From: an uncultured Bacteroidota bacterium
Lineage (GTDB): Bacteria > Bacteroidota > Bacteroidia > Chitinophagales > Chitinophagaceae
Assembly: GCA_903913355.1 (NCBI GenBank)
Contig: CAIWKU010000376.1
Span: forward strand, 1 to 37,799
Direction of reading: 5' to 3'
DNA: 37,799 nt
A program made the translations under genes and the position numbers. Position 1 is the stretch's first letter; every line of letters begins with the position of its first letter. The notes below the pieces were generated by a model that saw only the letters and a program-made list of their open reading frames with translations, searched no databases and was not told where the DNA came from. This document shows positions 14,138 to 30,946 of this stretch, one piece after another.

Positions 14138-15436
14138 ATGTCAACCCCTACCTTAAAACGCACCCTTACTCCCGCATTACTTTGGGGACTGGGCGTGGGT
14201 TATGTAATATCCGGGATGTATTTTGGCTGGAACCTCGGACTTGAAAAAGGCGGTGTTTATGGTATGGCCATCGCCACATTTTTTGTAATCATTCTGTATA
14301 CCTGTTTTAGTTTTTCATATGCTGAGCTTGCCTGCGCCATTCCTAAAGCAGGAGGTGCTTATGATTATGCGGAAAAAGCTTTTAAAAAGGACCTGGGTTT
14401 TATTGCCGGAATCGCACAAATCATTGAATTTGTATTTGCACCTCCTGCCATTGCCATTGCCATTGGCACGTATTTCAATCTGGCTTTTCCGCAAATACCC
14501 GTTATTGCCGGAGCCATAATGGTGTATTTGTTTTTTACGGCATTAAATATTTACGGAGTAAAAGCGGCAGCTGGTTTCGAATTAGCTGTCACCATTTTAG
14601 CAGTTGGGGAACTACTCTTATTTGCAGGATTAACATTACCTCATTTTTCTACTACACAGTTTGTCCATAATGCATTCCCACATGGCTGGGCTGGGGCTTT
14701 TGCTGCATTACCCTTTGCCATCTGGTTCTTTCTGGGAATAGAAGGCGTGGCCAATGTTGCCGAAGAAAGCCTGAATCCACAAAAAGATATTGTAAAAGGA
14801 TTTGGTTGGGCCATCCTCACTTTGGTAATTCTTTGTTTATTGGTATTCATCGCTTCAATAGGTGTTGGTGGATGGGAGAATATCGTTTACCTGAAAAACG
14901 GCGAAAGCTCCGATTCTCCGCTGCCATTGGCGCTCGGCAAATTATTTTCTCCCGATCATGTATATTATAAATTGCTGATTGGGATCGGTTTATTTGGATT
15001 AATCGCTTCTTTTCATGGATTGCTCTTAGCAAGCGGAAGAGCCAGTTTTGAATTTGGCAAAATTGGCAATGCTCCAAAACTATTGGGCGCTATTCATCGG
15101 AAATTTCAAACACCCGCCAATGCGTTAATCTGCAATGCGGTATTGGGGATAATCATTGTATGTACTGGCAGAACAGCTGAAATCATTGTTCTCTCTGTAT
15201 TTGGTGCAGTTACCCTGTATATAATTTCTATGCTTTCGCTTATCCGACTTAGAAAAAATGAACCAACCCTAACACGCCCTTTTCGGGTTCCCTTCTATCC
15301 GTTTACTCCCATCATTGCATTGGTACTGGCCATATTGTCTTTAACAGCCCTATGTTATTACAACGCTTTTCTGGCCATTTTATATTTTGGCTTATTGACA
15401 ATTTTTTACCTGGCATTTAAATTATTCAAACGATGA
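14138..15436 (+). CDS. eat: Ethanolamine permease (APC superfamily, EAT family)
   Basis: LWGLGVGYVISGMYFGWNLGL, ELACAIPKAGG, LPFAIWFFLGIEG and GLIASFHG are EAT-family signatures; about 12 transmembrane segments. Confidence 0.85.
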   Translation: MSTPTLKRTLTPALLWGLGVGYVISGMYFGWNLGLEKGGVYGMAIATFFVIILYTCFSFSYAELACAIPKAGGAYDYAEKAFKKDLGFIAGIAQIIEFVFAPPAIAIAIGTYFNLAFPQIPVIAGAIMVYLFFTALNIYGVKAAAGFELAVTILAVGELLLFAGLTLPHFSTTQFVHNAFPHGWAGAFAALPFAIWFFLGIEGVANVAEESLNPQKDIVKGFGWAILTLVILCLLVFIASIGVGGWENIVYLKNGESSDSPLPLALGKLFSPDHVYYKLLIGIGLFGLIASFHGLLLASGRASFEFGKIGNAPKLLGAIHRKFQTPANALICNAVLGIIIVCTGRTAEIIVLSVFGAVTLYIISMLSLIRLRKNEPTLTRPFRVPFYPFTPIIALVLAILSLTALCYYNAFLAILYFGLLTIFYLAFKLFKR

Positions 15437-16791
15437 ATACTCAGTCTATCTTCAATTATGTAAAACAACATCCTTCCGGGAGGGTTAAGATTGCGGTATC
15501 GGATATTGATGGAGTACTTAGGGGAAAGTATATTTCTGCCGAAAAGTTTTTATCAGTTGCCGAAACAGATATGGGTTTTTGTGATGTGGTATTCGGATGG
15601 GACATGAACGATGCTGCTTATGATAATGCCAGTTATACCGGATGGCACACAGGCTATCCGGATGCAAAATTGAAAATCATTCTCAGCAGTTTCCGTAAAA
15701 TACCCTGGGAAAATGATACTCCCTTTTTTCTGGGTGAATTCATTGATGCAAAAGGAAATCCACTGGCTATCTGCCCCAGACAGGTATTACAAAAAGTAAT
15801 CGCACAAGCTTCCAAAGCCGGATACAACGCAAAGTTCTCTCAGGAATTTGAATGGTTTAATTTTGCAGAAACCTCTCATTCCTTTGCAGACAAAGGAGGC
15901 AGAAACCTTACCCCGCTTACACCCGGCATGTTTGGGTATTCCATATTACGCAGCACAGAACGAAATGATTTTTTTTCGGACCTTTTTGATCTCCTGAAAA
16001 AATTTGATATCCCGTTAGAAGGCCTGCATACTGAAACCGGTCCCGGTGTGTATGAAGCGGCTATAGCTTTTGGAGATATCCTCAGCTCCGCAGACAGGGC
16101 CGTTCTTTTTAAAACAGCAGTGAAAGAAATAGCCGGCCTAAACGGAATCATGGCCACATTCATGGCAAAATTCAGCGAGAATCTACCAGGATGTAGTGGG
16201 CATGTTCACCAATCTTTATGGGATAAGCGTTCCCAAAATAACCTGTTTCATGATGCGAAGGATAAACAAAGGATGAGTCCATTAATGAAGAATTATCTGG
16301 CCGGGCAATTGCATTGCCTACCACATATTCTACCCATGGTGGCCCCAACCATTAATTCGTATAAGCGTTTGGTGGAGGGTGCATGGGCTCCTACTACTGT
16401 TACTTGGGGTTTAGACAACCGAACTGTTGCTTTACGTGCGCTAACAGAAGGGAAAAAATCATGTCGGCTTGAAACCCGTGTAGTAGGTAGTGACACCAAC
16501 CCCTATCTGGCCATGGCTGCTTGTTTAGCCGCCGGTTTGTATGGGATCCGAAAAAAATTAACACTCAAACAACCTGCAACAGCAGGTAATGGATACCAGG
16601 ATCTATCAAATGGTCGGTTTCCAAAAAGTTTGGATGAAGCTACCCAGTTGATGAAAACATCTGCCATTGCAAAAGAATTATTCGGCGAGGTTTTTGTACA
16701 ACATTTTACCCAAACCCGTGAATGGGAGGTAAAGCAGTTTGCCAAAGTAGTTACTGACTGGGAGCTAAAACGTTACTTTGAAATAATATAA
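15433..16791 (+). CDS. Glutamine synthetase-like gamma-glutamyl-amine ligase (GlnA4/PuuA-like)
   Basis: DIDGVLRGK, EFEWF, HTETGPGVYE, PGCSGHVHQSLW, NSYKRL, WGLDNRT and RLETRVVGSDTNPY. ATGA overlap with the permease. Confidence 0.88.
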   Translation: MNTQSIFNYVKQHPSGRVKIAVSDIDGVLRGKYISAEKFLSVAETDMGFCDVVFGWDMNDAAYDNASYTGWHTGYPDAKLKIILSSFRKIPWENDTPFFLGEFIDAKGNPLAICPRQVLQKVIAQASKAGYNAKFSQEFEWFNFAETSHSFADKGGRNLTPLTPGMFGYSILRSTERNDFFSDLFDLLKKFDIPLEGLHTETGPGVYEAAIAFGDILSSADRAVLFKTAVKEIAGLNGIMATFMAKFSENLPGCSGHVHQSLWDKRSQNNLFHDAKDKQRMSPLMKNYLAGQLHCLPHILPMVAPTINSYKRLVEGAWAPTTVTWGLDNRTVALRALTEGKKSCRLETRVVGSDTNPYLAMAACLAAGLYGIRKKLTLKQPATAGNGYQDLSNGRFPKSLDEATQLMKTSAIAKELFGEVFVQHFTQTREWEVKQFAKVVTDWELKRYFEII

Positions 16792-16830
16792 ACTTCTTTC
16801 TGATTGCTTGTCATATCCTTTTTTTGCGCT

Positions 16831-16838
16831 TAGGTTTG
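16831..16838 (+). promoter_or_regulatory. Bacteroidota sigma70 -7 element (TAnnTTTG), possible internal promoter
   Basis: TAGGTTTG in the 142-nt gap upstream of the Fe-ADH gene. Confidence 0.45.
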
Positions 16839-16933
16839 TATGAGCGTTATCCTGTCATTATTTGATAGTTAGGTCAGGATGCTAACTGTTTGCCACTAGA
16901 AACACCAGTTATTGATTAAACACATTATTGATT

Positions 16934-18073
16934 ATGCCTGTTTCACAATTTAATTTTCCAACGATTATCCGTTTTGGTGCGGGTGCTGTAGAGGAACTAC
17001 CTGCTTATTTAAAAACCAATCAGTTACAAAAACCCTTGATTGTTACAGATCCTACTATTGCAGGATTGTCTTTCTTTAAAAAAATTGTAACGGATCTTTC
17101 TGCGAAAGGATTTTTAGTAACTGTATTTCACGATACTCATAAGAACCCGGTTAAATCTGATGTATATAAAGGAACAGAGGTCTTCGATTTTTCAAAATCG
17201 GACTGTATCATAGGTATTGGGGGAGGCGCAGCGATTGATGTGGCCAGGGCAATTTTGTTACGTATCAATCACCGTGAAGATCTTTTCAAATATGACGACC
17301 TGATTGGCGGTGATATCTATGTTACGAATGAAGTGCCGCATTTTATTACCATTCCTACTACTGCGGGAACAGGAAGTGAAGTAGGCAGGTCGGCGATTAT
17401 TGCTGATGATGACACCCATCAGAAAAAAATATTGTTCTCTCCAAAATTGCTAGCTAAAATTGTTTTTGCGGATCCTTTACTTACCATGGACCTGCCTCCA
17501 TTTATCACTGCTGCTACAGGTATGGATGCCCTAACACATAATATGGAAGCATTTCTCGCAAAAAATTATCATCCGATTTGTGATGGCATTGCCCTTGAAG
17601 GAATCCGACTAATAGCGGGCTCATTAGAACAGGCCGTGAATGCCCCAACTATCTCCTCACGTTCAGATATGTTACTTGCTTCGATGATGGGGGCGATTGC
17701 GTTTCAGAAAGGATTGGGTGTAGTTCATTCTCTGGCACATCCTATGTCTGCATTGCTGGATACACACCATGGTTTAGCCAATGCCGTGAACCTTCCATAT
17801 GGTATGCGCTTTAATATTAGCGGGTCAGAAGAAAAATTTGTAAGAATCGCACGTGCATTGGAGTTGAAAAATGAAAGCGGCGAGGGCGTTGTGGAATATC
17901 TTTTTGATCTGAACTCGCGCGTTCATATACCTAATAAACTAAGCGAAGTGGGTGTTGAATCAAAACATATTGAAACACTCGCAGATCTTGCATTTGCAGA
18001 TTTTGCGCATCCCAATAACCCTAAGCCGGTAACGCGTGCTGATTTTAAAACACTTTACGAATCTGCACTATAA
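16934..18073 (+). CDS. Iron-containing alcohol dehydrogenase
   Basis: GGGAAIDVAR, PTTAGTGSE and the metal ligands DALTH, HSLAH and HHGLAN. Start at ATG 16934. Confidence 0.93.
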   Translation: MPVSQFNFPTIIRFGAGAVEELPAYLKTNQLQKPLIVTDPTIAGLSFFKKIVTDLSAKGFLVTVFHDTHKNPVKSDVYKGTEVFDFSKSDCIIGIGGGAAIDVARAILLRINHREDLFKYDDLIGGDIYVTNEVPHFITIPTTAGTGSEVGRSAIIADDDTHQKKILFSPKLLAKIVFADPLLTMDLPPFITAATGMDALTHNMEAFLAKNYHPICDGIALEGIRLIAGSLEQAVNAPTISSRSDMLLASMMGAIAFQKGLGVVHSLAHPMSALLDTHHGLANAVNLPYGMRFNISGSEEKFVRIARALELKNESGEGVVEYLFDLNSRVHIPNKLSEVGVESKHIETLADLAFADFAHPNNPKPVTRADFKTLYESAL

Positions 18074-18076
18074 ATC

Positions 18077-18778
18077 ATGACAAAAAAAATAACCATAGGT
18101 ATTACAGCATCAGAATCGAGATTTCAAAATTATCTTGACTGGATTCAGGGAGACAATGCAAATATTGAATTGATTACCCTTTCCTATGAAACACAGAATA
18201 CAGATGATGTAAAAAGATGCCAGGGTATTCTGTTATCTGGTGGTGTAGATATAACACCCGCTTTTTATAATAGCCAGAGAATCCGCTATCCGAATATGCC
18301 CAAAGAATGGAATAAGGAAAGAGATATTTTTGAAATGAAGGTTCTTCAGCTATCTATCGAAAACCAATTACCAATACTCGCTATCTGTCGCGGATTGCAA
18401 TTACTCAATACTTTTCTGGGCGGAACACTGATTCCTGATTTGGAAGAATCGGGCAAACAAGATCACAAAAGAAAAGAGGATAAAGATGGTCTTCACACTA
18501 TTACTATTGCTGAAAATAGTTTGCTGTTTTCAATTACCGGTAGTTTATCCGGAGAAGTGAATAGTGCACACCACCAGGCCATTGACCTGGTTTCAGATAG
18601 CCTGGTAGTAAATGCGGTTTCAACGGATGGTGTTATTGAAGGCGTTGAATGGAAAGACCCTGACAATAAATCTCCACTGCTGGGTGTGCAATGGCATCCC
18701 GAAAGAATGGATGATAAAAAAACAAATCCTCTTTCTGAAAATATCCTTAGCTGGTTTTTATCAGAAGCAAATCAATAA
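18077..18778 (+). CDS. Gamma-glutamyl-amide hydrolase, peptidase C26 / PuuD-like class I amidotransferase
   Basis: LSGGVDI, catalytic ICRGLQ, NSAHHQ and QWHPE. Starts 3 nt after the ADH stop. Confidence 0.9.
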   Translation: MTKKITIGITASESRFQNYLDWIQGDNANIELITLSYETQNTDDVKRCQGILLSGGVDITPAFYNSQRIRYPNMPKEWNKERDIFEMKVLQLSIENQLPILAICRGLQLLNTFLGGTLIPDLEESGKQDHKRKEDKDGLHTITIAENSLLFSITGSLSGEVNSAHHQAIDLVSDSLVVNAVSTDGVIEGVEWKDPDNKSPLLGVQWHPERMDDKKTNPLSENILSWFLSEANQ

Positions 18779-18782
18779 CTGT

Positions 18783-20147
18783 ATGAAAATTTTTAATCCG
18801 GCTACAGCTGAACTGATTACTACACTTGAGGCAGATACGGCAGAAAGTCTCTCTGAAAAAATACGCTTGCTTCGTCTTGGTCAAAAAGAATGGTCGGCCA
18901 CCGATCTGGCTGTCAGGATTACCATCCTTCAGCGGTATGCCCTGCTGCTTTCCAAAAATATCGAAGCGCTCTCTGCGATCTTAAGTTCTGAAACAGGCAA
19001 ACCTTTACAACAATCGGTTAATGAGATCAAGGGAGCCTGTGCAAGAATTGACTGGCTTACTGCTAACGCAGAAAAATATTTACGCCCGGAATGGATGGTT
19101 GAAGAGGGAGGCACTAAGGAAAAAATCGTTTATGAACCCTTGGGAGTAGTGGCTAATATCTCTGCCTGGAATTATCCTTATCTGGTGGGTACTAATGTTT
19201 TTATACCCGCATTATTGGCAGGGAATGCTGTGTTATATAAACCTTCAGAACTAGCCAGTCTTACCGGTTTACAGATTCAAAAATATTTACACGAAGCAGG
19301 TGTTCCGGCAAATGTATTTCAGGCAGGGATTGGTGCAGGAGATCTGGGAGAAATGATTTTAGAAGAAAAGCTGGACGGATATTTTTTCACCGGTTCTTAT
19401 AAAACCGGTAAGCATATTTATGAGAAAGTGAGTAAATATATGGTGCCCTGCGGACTGGAACTAGGTGGTAAAGACCCTTTATATGTAACAGATGATATTA
19501 CCGATATTGCCGCTGTTGCAGCCGGTACTGCTGATGGCGCGTTTTATAATAATGGACAGAGTTGTTGTTCGGTAGAACGTATTTATGTACATGAAAAAGT
19601 ATACGATGCCTATCTGGATGCATTTCTAAAAGAAGTGGCTTCTTATCAGATAGGTTTGCCAACCGAAGAAAATGTATATATCGCTGCACTTACCAGAAAG
19701 GAGCAGGTACAGCTCTTAATGGCACAGGTAGCAGATGCAGTAAACAAGGGGGCTTCGGTTGCCTTGGGGGGTAAACAACTAAACAGGGCTGGCAATTATT
19801 TTGCGCCTACCGTGCTGGTAAATGTGACACATGATATGGAGGTTATGAAAGAAGAATCTTTCGGACCCATTATCGGAATCATGAAAGTTAGCGGTGATGA
19901 GGAAGCCGTCCGGCTCATGAACGATACGGAATATGGACTAACCGCTTCCGTTTATTCCAATAACCAGTCAAGGGCTGCCCGGATTGAGGAGCAACTAAAT
20001 GTGGGTACAGTTTACTGGAATTGTTGTGACAGAGTTAGCGCTGCCCTACCCTGGAGCGGAAGAAAACATAGTGGATTTGGCAGTACTTTATCTCACGCCG
20101 GATTACGGGTATTTACCCGGCCCAAAGCCTGGCATCTAAGAGGCTAA
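18783..20147 (+). CDS. NAD(P)-dependent aldehyde dehydrogenase
   Basis: SAWNYP, KPSE, FTGS, LELGGKDP, GQSCC (catalytic Cys) and EESFGP. Start taken at ATG 18783, 4 nt after the C26 stop. Confidence 0.94.
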   Translation: MKIFNPATAELITTLEADTAESLSEKIRLLRLGQKEWSATDLAVRITILQRYALLLSKNIEALSAILSSETGKPLQQSVNEIKGACARIDWLTANAEKYLRPEWMVEEGGTKEKIVYEPLGVVANISAWNYPYLVGTNVFIPALLAGNAVLYKPSELASLTGLQIQKYLHEAGVPANVFQAGIGAGDLGEMILEEKLDGYFFTGSYKTGKHIYEKVSKYMVPCGLELGGKDPLYVTDDITDIAAVAAGTADGAFYNNGQSCCSVERIYVHEKVYDAYLDAFLKEVASYQIGLPTEENVYIAALTRKEQVQLLMAQVADAVNKGASVALGGKQLNRAGNYFAPTVLVNVTHDMEVMKEESFGPIIGIMKVSGDEEAVRLMNDTEYGLTASVYSNNQSRAARIEEQLNVGTVYWNCCDRVSAALPWSGRKHSGFGSTLSHAGLRVFTRPKAWHLRG

Positions 20148-25655: not shown

Positions 25656-26591
25656 TTAGAGAATCGTTTTATCCATTTTCGACATCCGAACCGTTTTCTC
25701 TCTTCGGATCGTTTCTGTTCCTTCTGTCGGAAAATCTTCGGCCTGTAATGCTATGCGTCGGGTAATATCATTCAGGGAGGAAAGTCGCTGAACCGTATAG
25801 GGTATGGTGTCCAGTCCCGAAACAAATTTTAATATATATGTATAGATCCCTACGATATTACCAGCCAGGATGGTGTTTCCCATTACCCGATGTGTCAATA
25901 CCAGTGAAATCGCAATGATTCCCATTACCATAAATTCCATGATCCCAAAATTCCAGGCTTCCTGGTCACTGATCCGGATCTGCCAGTGTCGCAGGTTATT
26001 AAAATGTTTGAAGATGGCTTTTTTATCGCCCGATGAAATGATATCTACCTGCTGTTCCAGTTCATCATTCTTGAGCCGGTTCAATCGTTTCATTCTTTTT
26101 CCATAGATATAACTGATGCCCATTACCGGAAGTAAAATGGCCAGACATAATAATACCACCGACCGGTCATAGAAATACAATAACACGATGGAGCCCAGCA
26201 AATTGTATAATGCCTCAATTACATACACCAGATCAAACTCAAGAAAATCAACAAACTCCCGAGCCAGTGTAGAGTGTGCACTTAGTTTAGATACTTCCGA
26301 TTTATCAATTCTGCGTGATAAAAAACGGGTTACCAAAGACGTATAAATGGCCGAATAGGTTCTGGTATCATAGCGATGTCGCAATGTACCTACAATCAAC
26401 CATGCCAGATGTACGCCGGATAATACAATCAATCCGCGATAGCTTCCTTTTATCAGGTCATTGATTGCTTCTCCCAGAAAAAATGGGCGCAATAAAGATC
26501 CAAGCATCTCTAAAGAAAACAATACATAAGTAATCACCAGCTGGGTGCGGTGCTTTTGCATTAGTTTTCGTATGATCTCAAATCTTGACAT
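25656..26591 (-). CDS. Stand-alone ABC-transporter-type six-transmembrane domain protein (ABC_membrane_3-like), no ATPase domain
   Basis: LRPFFLGEAINDL, RHRYDTRTYSAIY, LAREFVDFLE and LKNDELEQQV. No Walker A/B motif in its 311 aa. Confidence 0.75.
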   Translation of the reverse strand: MSRFEIIRKLMQKHRTQLVITYVLFSLEMLGSLLRPFFLGEAINDLIKGSYRGLIVLSGVHLAWLIVGTLRHRYDTRTYSAIYTSLVTRFLSRRIDKSEVSKLSAHSTLAREFVDFLEFDLVYVIEALYNLLGSIVLLYFYDRSVVLLCLAILLPVMGISYIYGKRMKRLNRLKNDELEQQVDIISSGDKKAIFKHFNNLRHWQIRISDQEAWNFGIMEFMVMGIIAISLVLTHRVMGNTILAGNIVGIYTYILKFVSGLDTIPYTVQRLSSLNDITRRIALQAEDFPTEGTETIRREKTVRMSKMDKTIL

Positions 26592-26727
26592 AAGGGAAGC
26601 AGTTCCTGTTTATTCTGATGGCAATTTTAGTGCAAGGTCTAACCCAAGTAATGGATTGCACAAATATTTAACAGTCCCCGAATTGTTAAGGGAGGAGTAA
26701 GTTAACCTATTAAAAAGGGAGCTTCGT

Positions 26728-28164
26728 TTAAGAAATGGTAAAGATTTCCCGGGCAGTTACAGAATTGCCTGTTTTTCCGGTGATAAGTCCTCTACAACCC
26801 GGCGCCCCACAGCGGCATTGGAAGGGTTCCATATGTTCATCCAGAAAACTTGCATAATCAAGTGTCAGTTCCTCACCGGGCTGTATCGGCCTTAACGCTA
26901 TCACATTCAATCCGTTATACCCGGTATTGGGCTCACAGCAATGGTTTTGCGGTGCCCAGGCCGATGGGTCATTATCCCAAAGCAGGAATACTTCATTGCT
27001 TAACGGGTAGGCATATCGACGAAATACCTGTTTTTCGGCCTCAGACCAGTTTTCTTCTACAAAACGGCGGGTAACCAGTCTTTGTGCCATTTGTTCCCCG
27101 TGGAACAGGATTTCGCCGGCAGCGATTGCCTTTTTGGCATAAATACCATAACCGGCAATGGCGTTTCCACGCATTATATATTTTTTTTGTACCCGCTCGT
27201 GACGGGCAATTCCTTCTGCAATCATGTGTCGTAAAAAGTCGGCCTGACCAATTCCATCCTGTTGCAATATATAATCGGCTGATCCTTCGTATCCATCACT
27301 ATAAAAAACCGAGCAGGTAAAATTGATCTCCAGAAAATACAATTCTCCTTTTGCATTCATCCTGAAATCGAGACGGCCATAACCCACCCCATTAAACGCA
27401 GTAAAGATTTTTTGTGCAGATTGACGTAATAGATTGTCGATTACCGGATCATTACAGGGAATATTCGCATCGGGATGTAATTCGGAAGTTTTCAGCGAAT
27501 AGGTTTTAAAATGAAACCCTTCCGGGAAAATATATTCAATGGGTTTAAATGCAGTTACCGTTTTACCATCTGCATTGGCAGCCACCAAAACAGTAAATTC
27601 TCTTCCATCTATATATTCTTCCGCAAGCAGCTGGTCGTAATTTTCCAGTAAAGCATTTACTTTGGCCAATAGTTCTTCCTGGGTATGCACCAGGGATTGA
27701 TCATCTATTCCCAAACTATCTCCCGCTTTGGCTGGTTTTATAAAAACAGGGAATGATAAAAGAGAAACTACGGCATTAATATCTTCTGTTTTTTCAATCA
27801 ATACATACGCCGGTGTTTTTACGCCTTCGCAATACGCAACATATTTCATCAGCTCTTTCGGAGGGTCGTATAACAGCATAGAAGGCCCGGTATACGGCAG
27901 GCCCAATAATTCTAAGGTATAGATCACATCAATAGAAGGCACTTCCCATTCCAGATAGCCTTCGCAAAGGTTTACAAAAATATCATAGCCCTTATGCTGT
28001 AGTGCTTTTAATTGCTTGTAGGTAGTTAATTTATTGAGTGAGATATGGTCTACCTGGTGTTCGGGTAAAAGTGCAGAAAGATTACGCGGAGGATCGTAGT
28101 ATTGGTAATCAACGGCGGTGGTTGAATAATCAGGCTGTAACACACAAACTTTCATAATATTCAT
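26728..28164 (-). CDS. Fusion protein: D-Ala-D-Ala-ligase-like ATP-grasp domain + SET/post-SET methyltransferase domain
   Basis: ATP-grasp: LGLPYTG, FIKPAKAGDSLGI, EEYIDGREFTV, YGRLDFR, LEINF. SET: GYGIYAKKAIAAGE, QNHCCEPN, GEELTLDY, post-SET CRCGAPGC. Confidence 0.88.
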   Translation of the reverse strand: MNIMKVCVLQPDYSTTAVDYQYYDPPRNLSALLPEHQVDHISLNKLTTYKQLKALQHKGYDIFVNLCEGYLEWEVPSIDVIYTLELLGLPYTGPSMLLYDPPKELMKYVAYCEGVKTPAYVLIEKTEDINAVVSLLSFPVFIKPAKAGDSLGIDDQSLVHTQEELLAKVNALLENYDQLLAEEYIDGREFTVLVAANADGKTVTAFKPIEYIFPEGFHFKTYSLKTSELHPDANIPCNDPVIDNLLRQSAQKIFTAFNGVGYGRLDFRMNAKGELYFLEINFTCSVFYSDGYEGSADYILQQDGIGQADFLRHMIAEGIARHERVQKKYIMRGNAIAGYGIYAKKAIAAGEILFHGEQMAQRLVTRRFVEENWSEAEKQVFRRYAYPLSNEVFLLWDNDPSAWAPQNHCCEPNTGYNGLNVIALRPIQPGEELTLDYASFLDEHMEPFQCRCGAPGCRGLITGKTGNSVTAREIFTIS

Positions 28165-28262
28165 TGATGAGTTGATCGAAACAACTCTTTGTTTTAGATT
28201 TTCCCTAAACTGAGTCTGCGTATAAACTTACGAATTGACCACAATATCCTGTTTAAAGATCT

Positions 28263-29384
28263 TTATACATATTCTTTTTTTCTGCGGAAAGCATCATTGA
28301 TAATTTCCGTAATCAGGTCAGAGAAAGTGCATCCGCTCATCCTAAGTATCGCACCGATAGACGTATAGTTTTCATCTTCACTGATACCGCATTGTGCATT
28401 TACTTCCAATACAAATAGTTTACCGCTTGCTTTATCCATTCGGATATCTACCCTTGTGTAGCCCGTTCCCTTTACAGCAATATACGCATCCAGACTAATC
28501 TGTTTGATGGCTTTATGGAGAGATGGGTCGGGTAATTGGTATTGATAAAAATCAGCTTCTTCCGGCATGGGTGTCTCTTCTTCATAGATTTCCCATAAAC
28601 GGTCAAAGGATAAAAATTTTTCCGTGTCTTTTAAAGAAGAATGAAATACTCTTTCAACCGGTGTATATATTTTACATAAGTCAGGTTCAGTATAAGAGCC
28701 AACAATCATTACGGTAAACTCAGGACCATCAATAAAAGATTCTGCAATAATGCCATCAGCCGCCAGGTTCCATCCCCGATACCCTTCAAACATACGTTCC
28801 ACCTGGTTAGCTAATTCATCTGTTGTATGAACTACATTTTTAACACCCACGCCCATACTTCCTCCGGAAACAGCCGGTTTTACAATTACCGGCGACCCCA
28901 ATTTTTTGATAATTGTATGAAGATCCTGATCCCTGGTTTGAATGATCTCCCAATTAGGCGTTGCCACTCCGGCTTTTTCAAAAGCCTGTTTCATAGGAAT
29001 CTTGGAAGTCGTGATCCGATAAAAATATTCATCCGAACCCGTATATACCATTCCTTTTTGCTCTAGTAACTGTACAACTGACACACCGGGTGTTCCATTT
29101 ACTTCGTCGCCATCACATAAATTCAGAACCAGTGGAAAATTTTTCAACTCTTCCTGCTCGGTCAATATTTTATCAATAATGATGGGATAATCTTCCAGTG
29201 TTACCGGTTGCCATTGCCAGGCAAGACCCAATTGCTGAAAAGTTTTTTCATACTCAGCAATGCTTTGTGAAAAATCATAATAGTAATCAATATTATCATC
29301 CTGTGTAACCAGGTAAGGGGCCAATACCCATACTTTCAATGCAGCCAAAGGAACAGAGGGAATAAAATCAACTGGGAGCGACAT
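28263..29384 (-). CDS. D-Ala-D-Ala-ligase-like ATP-grasp amide ligase (not a canonical Ddl)
   Basis: VYTGS, SKIPMK, IVKPAVSGGSMGV, ESFIDGPEFTV, YTRVDIR and LEVNAQCG. Lacks the Ddl N-terminal GGxSxEHEVS motif. Confidence 0.85.
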   Translation of the reverse strand: MSLPVDFIPSVPLAALKVWVLAPYLVTQDDNIDYYYDFSQSIAEYEKTFQQLGLAWQWQPVTLEDYPIIIDKILTEQEELKNFPLVLNLCDGDEVNGTPGVSVVQLLEQKGMVYTGSDEYFYRITTSKIPMKQAFEKAGVATPNWEIIQTRDQDLHTIIKKLGSPVIVKPAVSGGSMGVGVKNVVHTTDELANQVERMFEGYRGWNLAADGIIAESFIDGPEFTVMIVGSYTEPDLCKIYTPVERVFHSSLKDTEKFLSFDRLWEIYEEETPMPEEADFYQYQLPDPSLHKAIKQISLDAYIAVKGTGYTRVDIRMDKASGKLFVLEVNAQCGISEDENYTSIGAILRMSGCTFSDLITEIINDAFRRKKEYV

Positions 29385-29389
29385 GTAAA

Positions 29390-29887
29390 TTATTTCTTCG
29401 TTCGTTTTTGCAACTGCTCGTGAATAAAATCGGTTAGTCTGTATTGGGCCGCTTCTGTTTCGGAAAGATGCGCGGCGCCTTTAATTCTATGCAGACAATT
29501 ACTGCTGCTGCAATAACAGTCAAATGGCTGAACCATATCCCATTCGGTAGAAGGATAAAAGAATAACAATTCATCCCCCGGTTGTATTTCTTTTAATGCT
29601 ACCAGTTCCATCGTAGTGGTATTAAAAAAAACATTGGGGTTACAGCTATGGTTGATGTATTGTAAAAACTCGGGTTGTAAAGTAATATGCCTGTTCTCTC
29701 CTGTTTGAACCGTCAGATAGGTTGGCAATTCCAATACCTGGTCCGCAGCAAAACAGCAGATGGTTTCTTCCTTATCAAAAAAAGCAGTCGCGTGTAATGA
29801 TTTTTCGCCTGTAACGGAGTTTTGCATAATGTCAGCAAAACCGTGTTTGCTTAGCATAGTATATGCCGTTGTAAGTGCTTTTATCAT
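29390..29887 (-). CDS. Stand-alone SET domain methyltransferase with post-SET cysteines
   Basis: YINHSCNPN, GDELLFFY and CYCSSSNC. Its stop lies 5 nt upstream of the ATP-grasp start. Confidence 0.88.
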   Translation of the reverse strand: MIKALTTAYTMLSKHGFADIMQNSVTGEKSLHATAFFDKEETICCFAADQVLELPTYLTVQTGENRHITLQPEFLQYINHSCNPNVFFNTTTMELVALKEIQPGDELLFFYPSTEWDMVQPFDCYCSSSNCLHRIKGAAHLSETEAAQYRLTDFIHEQLQKRTKK

Positions 29888-30260: not shown

Positions 30261-30283
30261 TCTTGGTTACCAAAACTGCTGGC

Positions 30284-30946
30284 ATGCTAAACAGAAAAAT
30301 CAAGTTGCTGATTGCTGATGATCATTCGGTATTCAGAACCGGTTTAAAAACATTTCTATCACAGATACCCCATTTGGAAATTGCCGGCGAAGCCGGAAAT
30401 GGTCAGGATTTGATGAAACTGGCGATAGATCTTAACCCCGATGTGATCATAACCGATCTGGATATGCCAGTCATGAGTGGCATACAGGCAACTAAGGAAT
30501 TATGTAAACGGATACCCTATTGCCGGGTAATTGCACTTACCGTTCATGCCCGGGAAGAATCTATTCTCCGAATGCTGGAAGCAGGTGCCCTGGGTTATGT
30601 GTTGAAAAGTGCCGACACAAAGGAAATTGTTGAAGCAATAGAATCGGTTGATCTGTATAAACCCTTTTTCTGCAAAGCCATTTCCGAAATGCTTACCACC
30701 ATTATTACCCGCGATTTTAAAGTACCGGTGGCAGAAACGGTTTACCTAACTGAAAGAGAAAAGCAAATCGTACAATTAATTTGTCATGAACATACCAGCA
30801 AAGGTATTGCGCATATACTTTGTCTTAGTAAAAGAACGATAGAAGGGCACAGAAGGCGGATCATGGATAAGGTAGGCGCAAAAAGTATCGCAGGGGTTAT
30901 TGCTTTTGCGTACGAAACGGGAATATATAAAAAGCCCGTTCCATAA
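30284..30946 (+). CDS. NarL/FixJ family response regulator (REC + LuxR HTH), orphan in this window
   Basis: IADDH, phospho-acceptor TDLDMP, ALT and YVLK; HTH LTEREKQIV...LSKRTIEGHRRRIMDK. Start at ATG 30284. Confidence 0.93.
   Translation: MLNRKIKLLIADDHSVFRTGLKTFLSQIPHLEIAGEAGNGQDLMKLAIDLNPDVIITDLDMPVMSGIQATKELCKRIPYCRVIALTVHAREESILRMLEAGALGYVLKSADTKEIVEAIESVDLYKPFFCKAISEMLTTIITRDFKVPVAETVYLTEREKQIVQLICHEHTSKGIAHILCLSKRTIEGHRRRIMDKVGAKSIAGVIAFAYETGIYKKPVP

Follow-up and report, generated by a model that had tools for sequence, protein, structure and literature searches.

BurB of Burkholderia thailandensis (PDB 9l4t, 9l4v) and its homolog MSMT of Streptomyces mobaraensis are the only characterized small-molecule SET enzymes named in the papers covered. 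BurB converts free methionine to S-methylmethionine (PMC12542666, PMC7496086) and holds methionine by main-chain contacts (PMC12542666). ATP-grasp dipeptide formation combined with methylation is represented by the anserine pathway of carnosine synthase and carnosine N-methyltransferase (PMC6920838), and eukaryotic TTLL12 has a SET-like and a TTL-like (ATP-grasp) domain in one chain (PMC3520985). Here we describe a gene cluster in which two SET domains and two ATP-grasp ligase domains are encoded together. It lies in a 37,799-nucleotide (nt) stretch of DNA, the window (contig CAIWKU010000376.1), from an uncultured bacterium of the Chitinophagaceae, and the nearest named relatives of the locus are Chitinophagaceae, many of them Sediminibacterium. 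Among cultured bacteria, Sediminibacterium soli and S. roseum (L026, L036) carry the module. We estimate a probability of roughly 0.6 that the cluster specifies a nonribosomal pathway whose predicted product is a small di- or tripeptide that is methylated and is other than D-Ala-D-Ala.

An earlier note on this DNA had placed four co-oriented genes here, and the open reading frames (ORFs) on the minus strand agree with its order and coordinates. The genes, separated by gaps of 5, 98, and 136 nt, are given below in transcription order, with the two domains of the fusion listed after it.

29390..29887, minus strand: SET1, 165 amino acids (aa), stand-alone SET methyltransferase, BurB-like (Pfam SET)
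28263..29384, minus strand: LIG1, 373 aa, ATP-grasp ligase with the fold of Ddl, the D-Ala-D-Ala ligase (Pfam Dala_Dala_lig_C)
26728..28164, minus strand: fusion, 478 aa (Pfam Dala_Dala_lig_C + SET)
27190..28164, minus strand: LIG2, residues 1-325 of the fusion, N-terminal ATP-grasp domain, a LIG1 paralog (27% identity)
26728..27189, minus strand: SET2, residues 326-478 of the fusion, C-terminal SET/post-SET domain of a separate SET subfamily
25656..26591, minus strand: TMD, 311 aa, ATP-binding cassette (ABC)-type transmembrane domain, ABC_membrane_3 (PF13748), optional

Coupling of the SET and ligase genes

The pairing of SET and ATP-grasp domains had been taken as a sign of functional coupling, and the distribution of the genes supports this: the enzyme genes are kept or lost together, are retained when unlinked, and are fused in relatives. 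In an even set of 201 genomes from the window's family, the fusion was present in 53, SET1 in 53, and LIG1 in 54. All three enzyme genes occur in 52 of these genomes, two in 2, and none in 147. The two-gene genomes are G486, with no SET1 match, and G556, with no fusion match and a LIG1 gene that reaches the contig end. SET1 without ligases was found in 0/201 family genomes. Across a sample of 401 genomes from the phylum, 21 carry the fusion and 19 carry SET1; every genome with SET1 is one of the 21, so that SET1 without the fusion was found in 0/401. When the best 80 of 161 confirmed fusion loci in genomes were studied, LIG1 was present in 78, SET1 in 67, and TMD in 30; SET1 was found in 65 of the 72 loci with at least 2 kb upstream. 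SET1 is retained 1.7 Mb away from the ligases in G433 and lies on a separate contig in G536, G506, and G557, and the operon is split in G586 and G587 into a SET1-LIG1 pair and a fusion(-TMD) part. These observations show SET1, LIG1, and the fusion to be coupled as one module.

Domain fusions in relatives reveal the same coupling as co-occurrence. Five arrangements other than that of the window occur in relatives. The best 150 representatives yielded four of them: LIG2::SET2::SET1 (P0126, P0132, P0133, P0138, P0165, P0200, P0222, P0247), SET1::LIG2 (P0186, P0218), LIG1::LIG2 (P0171), and a single chain with two ligases and two SETs (P0155), whose second ligase falls outside the LIG1 group in the ligase tree. 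The fifth is LIG1::LIG2::SET2 (P0097). A LIG2::SET2-like unit with an insertion ahead of the SET part was also seen in proteins of 707 to 6,220 aa (P0237, P0226, P0257, P0265), of which P0237 comes from a eukaryote collection. For the 30 representatives whose sources were looked up, most had no taxon; the named sources were Streptomyces (P0135), Mesostigma viride (P0137), Vermamoeba vermiformis (cluster of P0134), and Cyanoptyche gloeocystis (P0170). The fusion relatives include proteins labeled as amoeba, glaucophyte, and green-algal. Atlas protein clusters were Bacteroidota-dominated, with one dominated by Acidobacteriota.

The core of the module is the ligase::SET fusion, often standing alone. 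Genus g71 (9 genomes) lacks LIG1 but carries SET1 and the fusion; where a longer stretch was read (5 genomes), these genes are followed by a full ABC exporter and then by a third small SET. This third SET is minimal, at 118 aa (L103:10756-11112, with matching sites in L102 and L104-L106). Metagenome loci were examined as the best 80 of 318, in 34 groups; many contigs are short, and the query was a LIG2::SET2::SET1 protein, so the set is biased toward that architecture. With that bias, SET1 is fused in 10 of the 34 groups and a SET1-like gene is adjacent in 1, and a second LIG2-type ligase occurs in 2. No LIG1-type gene was seen beside the fusion in any of these 80 distant loci, and on several of the long contigs the fusion has neither a second SET nor a second ligase. 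The four genes of the earlier note are thus not a fixed unit, TMD being present in 23/201 family genomes and LIG1 beside 0/80 metagenome fusions. A plasmid search recovered 0 full-length fusions among 72,556 records, and a viral scan recovered a single locus with a lone ligase and no SET. That viral contig (L192:3375-4355, 24% GC) carries a same-clade ligase near a class III aminotransferase, and in the tree this ligase falls together with P0155's second one.

The cluster genes are under purifying selection. Relative to locus L006, the ratio of nonsynonymous to synonymous substitution rates (dN/dS) is ~0.02 to 0.09 for SET1, LIG1, and the fusion; relative to L011, dS is saturated and dN is 0.05 to 0.17 across all four genes. 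The GC content of the cluster (0.409; window, 0.400) matches that of the genome (0.396).

Comparison of the ligases with Ddl and of the SET domains with BurB

Database labels assign the module proteins as D-Ala-D-Ala ligase, VanC-type, or protein-lysine methyltransferase. The two ligase labels are likely wrong. Against TIGR01205 (Ddl), the window ligases score 91.6 and 95.1 bits, versus an NCBIfam cutoff of 245.65, and they lie far below the cutoffs of all Van models. A quick IQ-TREE analysis (62 rows, rooted at the midpoint, without bootstrap, and with flagged long branches) placed LIG1 (11 rows, support 95) and LIG2 in one 43-row clade (Shimodaira-Hasegawa-like approximate likelihood ratio test [SH-aLRT], 99) apart from 14 Ddl/Van rows. 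A ligase on a Thioflavicoccus mobilis plasmid (L111:2467-7948), Ddl-like and accompanied by diaminobutyrate transaminase, SbnA, ornithine cyclodeaminase, and KamA genes, branches beside the module ligase clade on a long branch.

The active-site positions point the same way. Equivalents of K97, K144, E180, E187, R255, D257, E270, and N272 (Escherichia coli DdlB numbering) are kept in both ligases. E15, S19, H63, E68, P275, and S281, invariant in 14/14 Ddl/Van sequences, are replaced in LIG1 and LIG2, the E15 and S19 columns being poorly aligned; we take S19, H63, E68, and S281 to be D-Ala subsite residues. Glu15, a D-Ala-site residue, and Arg255 of Ddl are described in PMC5717164. The H63 position holds D in 11/11 LIG1 and D or E in 26/27 LIG2 sequences, within an N-L-C-D/E-G motif. 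Judged by this alignment, both ligases keep the ATP/Mg and acyl-phosphate residues but have lost those that bind D-Ala. LIG1 also has invariant acidic and aromatic stretches (Y35-Y-D-F38, N88-L-C-D91-G, and S259-F-D-R-L-W-E-I-Y-E268) at N-terminal and omega-loop positions, and such loops would suit a cationic substrate.

In a predicted model of the fusion (predicted local distance difference test score [pLDDT], 96), the ligase fold is nearest to Ddl (Z 30.6; root mean square deviation [rmsd], 2.4; 300 aligned), ahead of LysX (Z 23.3), RimK (20.4), BacD (19.9), graspetide ligases (15 to 18), and RizA (16.3). The RimK family gave weak, partial matches to the ligases, and the top 50 fold matches of the model contain no TTL structures. 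The parallel with TTLL12 drawn previously holds for the shared architecture and ends there; the window ligase is Ddl-like. The module ligases share the three-domain fold and catalytic-residue equivalents of Ddl, yet they are not members of the Ddl/Van families; the separate paralogous clade, the scores below cutoff, and the lost D-Ala site, along with their fusion or linkage to SETs, set them apart, which supports the earlier note on this point. The module also shares ATP-grasp dipeptide logic with the anserine pathway and with the L-amino-acid ligases BacD and RizA, although the folds of these two ligases are more distant than Ddl and methylation is shared with the anserine pathway only. To our knowledge, carnosine N-methyltransferase is not a SET enzyme.

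BurB was the top PDB match for both SET1 and SET2. For SET1, the profile score was 78.5 bits versus 49.3 for the next match, and its predicted structure (pLDDT, 93) aligned to BurB with a Z of 15.1 (rmsd, 3.5; 129 aligned; next Z, 10.1) and a Foldseek TM of ~0.7, with other structures at 0.6 or less. SET1 resembles BurB and MSMT in size, in a short i-SET with T59-x-Q61...H67, and in a Y-x-S-T-E motif at the same spacing (Y111-P-S-T-E115); it further has N79-H80-S-C82 and post-SET cysteines at 124, 126, and 131. The partners differ, being amide ligases in the module and a decarboxylase, transaminase, dehydrogenase, and polyketide synthase-nonribosomal peptide synthetase (PKS-NRPS) for BurB/MSMT. 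For SET2, the margin for BurB was small (44.6 versus 38.4 bits). SET2 lacks the short i-SET and Y-x-S-T-E loop motifs, has a helical i-SET insert of roughly the length found in generic bacterial SETs, and conserves E357, W373, W403, H408, and Y437. By these features, SET2 belongs to a SET subfamily distinct from that of SET1.

The hallmarks of protein-lysine SET enzymes (NHxC, ELxxxY, and post-SET cysteines) are present in both SET1 and SET2. Because H-S-C, Y, and the post-SET cysteines also occur in BurB, these motifs do not decide the substrate. The motifs cited in the earlier note were mostly as described: NHxC, ELxxxY, and CxCxxxxC are found in both SETs and K-P, R-x-D, and E-x-N in both ligases, whereas E-x-I-D-G-x-E is not present in LIG1, which reads E215-S-F-I-D-G-P-E222, one residue off. 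The same note took both SETs for N-methyltransferases. SET1 is nearest to BurB, an S-methyltransferase of free methionine, which leaves the "two N-methylations" without support and makes a sulfonium product possible. A predicted complex of the fusion with SET1 scored 0.00, which is evidence neither way.

Two SET loci outside the module were also encountered. On a plasmid of Eleftheria terrae (L226:6866-11334; NZ_CP106953.1), a SET gene lies in a PKS, TauD, aminotransferase, and aldehyde-dehydrogenase cluster resembling the bur locus. On a plasmid of Streptomyces sp. SAT1 (L234:2476-7426; NZ_CP016083.1), a PGM1-related peptide ligase is immediately followed by a SET, a lysine 2,3-aminomutase, and a SidA-type monooxygenase, making a second, unrelated pairing of SET and peptide ligase in an apparent biosynthetic cluster.

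Iyer et al. in 2009 or Aravind et al. in 2011 may list SET/ATP-grasp associations. As the earlier note had supposed, no characterized pathway with the module architecture was found in the literature searched, with supplements and these two likely surveys outside its coverage. A review of bacterial SET proteins (PMC3980110) does not contain the terms ligase, D-ala, or ATP-grasp.

Membrane proteins and neighboring genes

Of the 23 family genomes with TMD (PF13748), 22 are among the 54 module-positive genomes and 1 is among the 147 others; in 20 genomes, TMD directly follows the fusion. A Pfam scan found no nucleotide-binding domain in TMD. A full ABC exporter subfamily, whose members share 32 to 47% identity between loci, is found near the fusion in 5/34 metagenome groups and in g71, and it gave no BLAST match to TMD. 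Since two unrelated kinds of ABC membrane protein recur beside the module, transport appears to have joined it on two or more occasions, as a partner that recurs but is optional. TMD is 93% identical to its L011 counterpart (dN, 0.046) and so is better conserved than the enzymes, though absent from more than half of the module genomes.

Other neighbors were assessed in one Pfam batch of 91 ORFs near 35 representative loci and in a precursor-peptide scan of 80 loci, which took same-strand ORFs of 20 to 89 aa with ATG starts from the 700 nt on either side. No mur gene or racemase was recognized among the recurring neighbors, no candidate gene for a target protein is conserved near the module, and no homologs of the bur-like decarboxylase or aminotransferase were seen in bacterial module loci, where aldehyde-dehydrogenase matches lie only at a distance of 6 to 8 kb, in 3 loci. 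The scan gave no conserved precursor-peptide gene among 474 ORFs; its largest family, in 11 loci, looks like an antisense shadow of a neighbor gene. A divergent LuxR-type regulator gene (30263-30946) was set aside as a candidate regulator of the module; it occurs in 28/80 loci, mostly with TIM-barrel and RecQ neighbors, and was read as local synteny. Scans for promoters and terminators gave about what chance would give (13 versus 15.9 and 6 versus 4.4), and a pattern that we take to be the Bacteroidetes promoter had 0 matches. Elsewhere in the window, a plus-strand run at 14138-20147 encodes an amino-acid permease, a glutamine-synthetase-like protein, an iron-containing alcohol dehydrogenase, and an aldehyde dehydrogenase, an arrangement that presumably resembles gamma-glutamylation routes of amine use.

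A candidate small-peptide pathway and its alternatives

In the pathway that we propose, SET1 would methylate a free amino acid with S-adenosylmethionine (SAM), the best single guess being methionine to S-methylmethionine. LIG1, with Asp at the His63 position and acidic and aromatic loops, may take a cationic substrate, possibly the product of SET1. The two ligases would form one or two ATP-driven amide bonds between small amino-acid-type substrates; within the fusion, LIG2 would make the amide and SET2 would methylate the product or a substrate, which may be the minimal and widespread reaction. The membrane protein, where present, would move the product. All substrates, and the sequence in which the steps occur, are putative. 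Counted in favor of this pathway are the co-occurrence and the fusions of the genes, the resemblance of SET1 to BurB, a ligase fold nearest to that of Ddl, which joins small molecules into a dipeptide, and the ABC membrane proteins found repeatedly next to the module. The single likeliest specific chemistry has S-methylmethionine as a building block, though as a specific proposal it is tentative. Similarly speculative is the full sulfonium-peptide route, in which a BurB-type SET would make S-methylmethionine, the paired Ddl-fold ligases would build it into a short peptide, and the second SET would methylate again.

Several results weigh against this pathway. SET1 is only ~25% identical to BurB and differs at BurB S88, L92, R133, and H138; several SAM-contact residues are not shared. 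In a quick SET tree of 42 rows, in which bur-like SETs were represented by two stand-ins (Eleftheria and Sphingomonas) rather than by BurB itself, the stand-ins pair at 98 and SET1 is their sister group (joint branch SH-aLRT, 90), not inside. Because BurB binds methionine through main-chain atoms, the specificity of SET1 cannot be confirmed from sequence. No precursor-supply genes recur among the neighbor families of the loci examined, and the PF13748 gene is absent from 32/54 module genomes. The co-occurrence counts are descriptive and overstate the number of separate events, since kin genomes are not independent. Finally, a lone fusion without a second SET, second ligase, or transporter occurs in many lineages (e.g., L117, L127, L130, L144, L148, and L150) and also fits a protein-modifying enzyme.

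Enzymes such as RimK, LysX, and TTL add amino acids to proteins. If the module worked in this way, its ATP-grasp domain would add an amino acid to a protein, SET2 would methylate the tag or a nearby lysine, and SET1 with LIG1 would extend the tag. The variable context of the fusion, often a lone gene, its relatives labeled as amoeba, glaucophyte, and green-algal, and the generic length of the SET2 i-SET insert are consistent with such tagging. We nevertheless consider it unlikely: the ligase fold is nearer to Ddl (Z, 30.6) than to RimK or LysX (Z, 20 to 23), SET1 is BurB-like, transport proteins recur, and no target gene is conserved nearby, although an unlinked target is conceivable. Ddl as the nearest solved ligase relative would also suit an envelope role, with the ligases joining D-amino acids into an unusual dipeptide for peptidoglycan or some other polymer of the envelope and the SETs methylating it; two of the three named eukaryote carriers are, we presume, from algal lineages with plastid peptidoglycan. 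Against this role, one relative is labeled Vermamoeba, and E15, S19, H63, E68, and S281 are lost. A canonical Ddl is encoded elsewhere in the window genome (contig C297) and in 5/5 other module genomes tested. With no mur gene or racemase recognized among the recurring neighbors either, an envelope dipeptide is very unlikely.

The similarity of SET1 to BurB in sequence and predicted fold could also mark the start of a BurB/MSMT-type route to dimethylsulfoniopropionate (DMSP) or a similar free sulfonium solute, with the ligases serving something else. This is slightly less probable still, given that bacterial module loci lack the bur-like homologs and that SET1 was not found apart from the ligases in the family or from the fusion in the phylum. 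The least credible of the alternatives is cross-linking of a ribosomally made precursor peptide, as in graspetides. ATP-grasp genes beside ABC exporters are typical of such clusters, but the 474 flanking ORFs of 80 loci include no conserved precursor, and graspetide ligases match the fold at Z 15 to 18 versus 30.6 for Ddl.

The module is a widespread orphan pathway with putative chemistry. Through it, two SET subfamilies beyond that of BurB and MSMT are linked with a distinct clade of Ddl-fold ligases. The module is present in 54/201 genomes of a bacterial family that is common, and in the form of the fusion it extends to other phyla and to microbial eukaryotes. With three soluble enzymes and a specific first guess, methionine to S-methylmethionine, the question is cheap to test. 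If the sulfonium-peptide route is correct, a sulfonium peptide would be made by about a quarter of the window's family as well as in other bacterial phyla and by some protists. This would be a non-DMSP branch of organosulfur metabolism in which SETs act as tailoring enzymes on ATP-grasp products.

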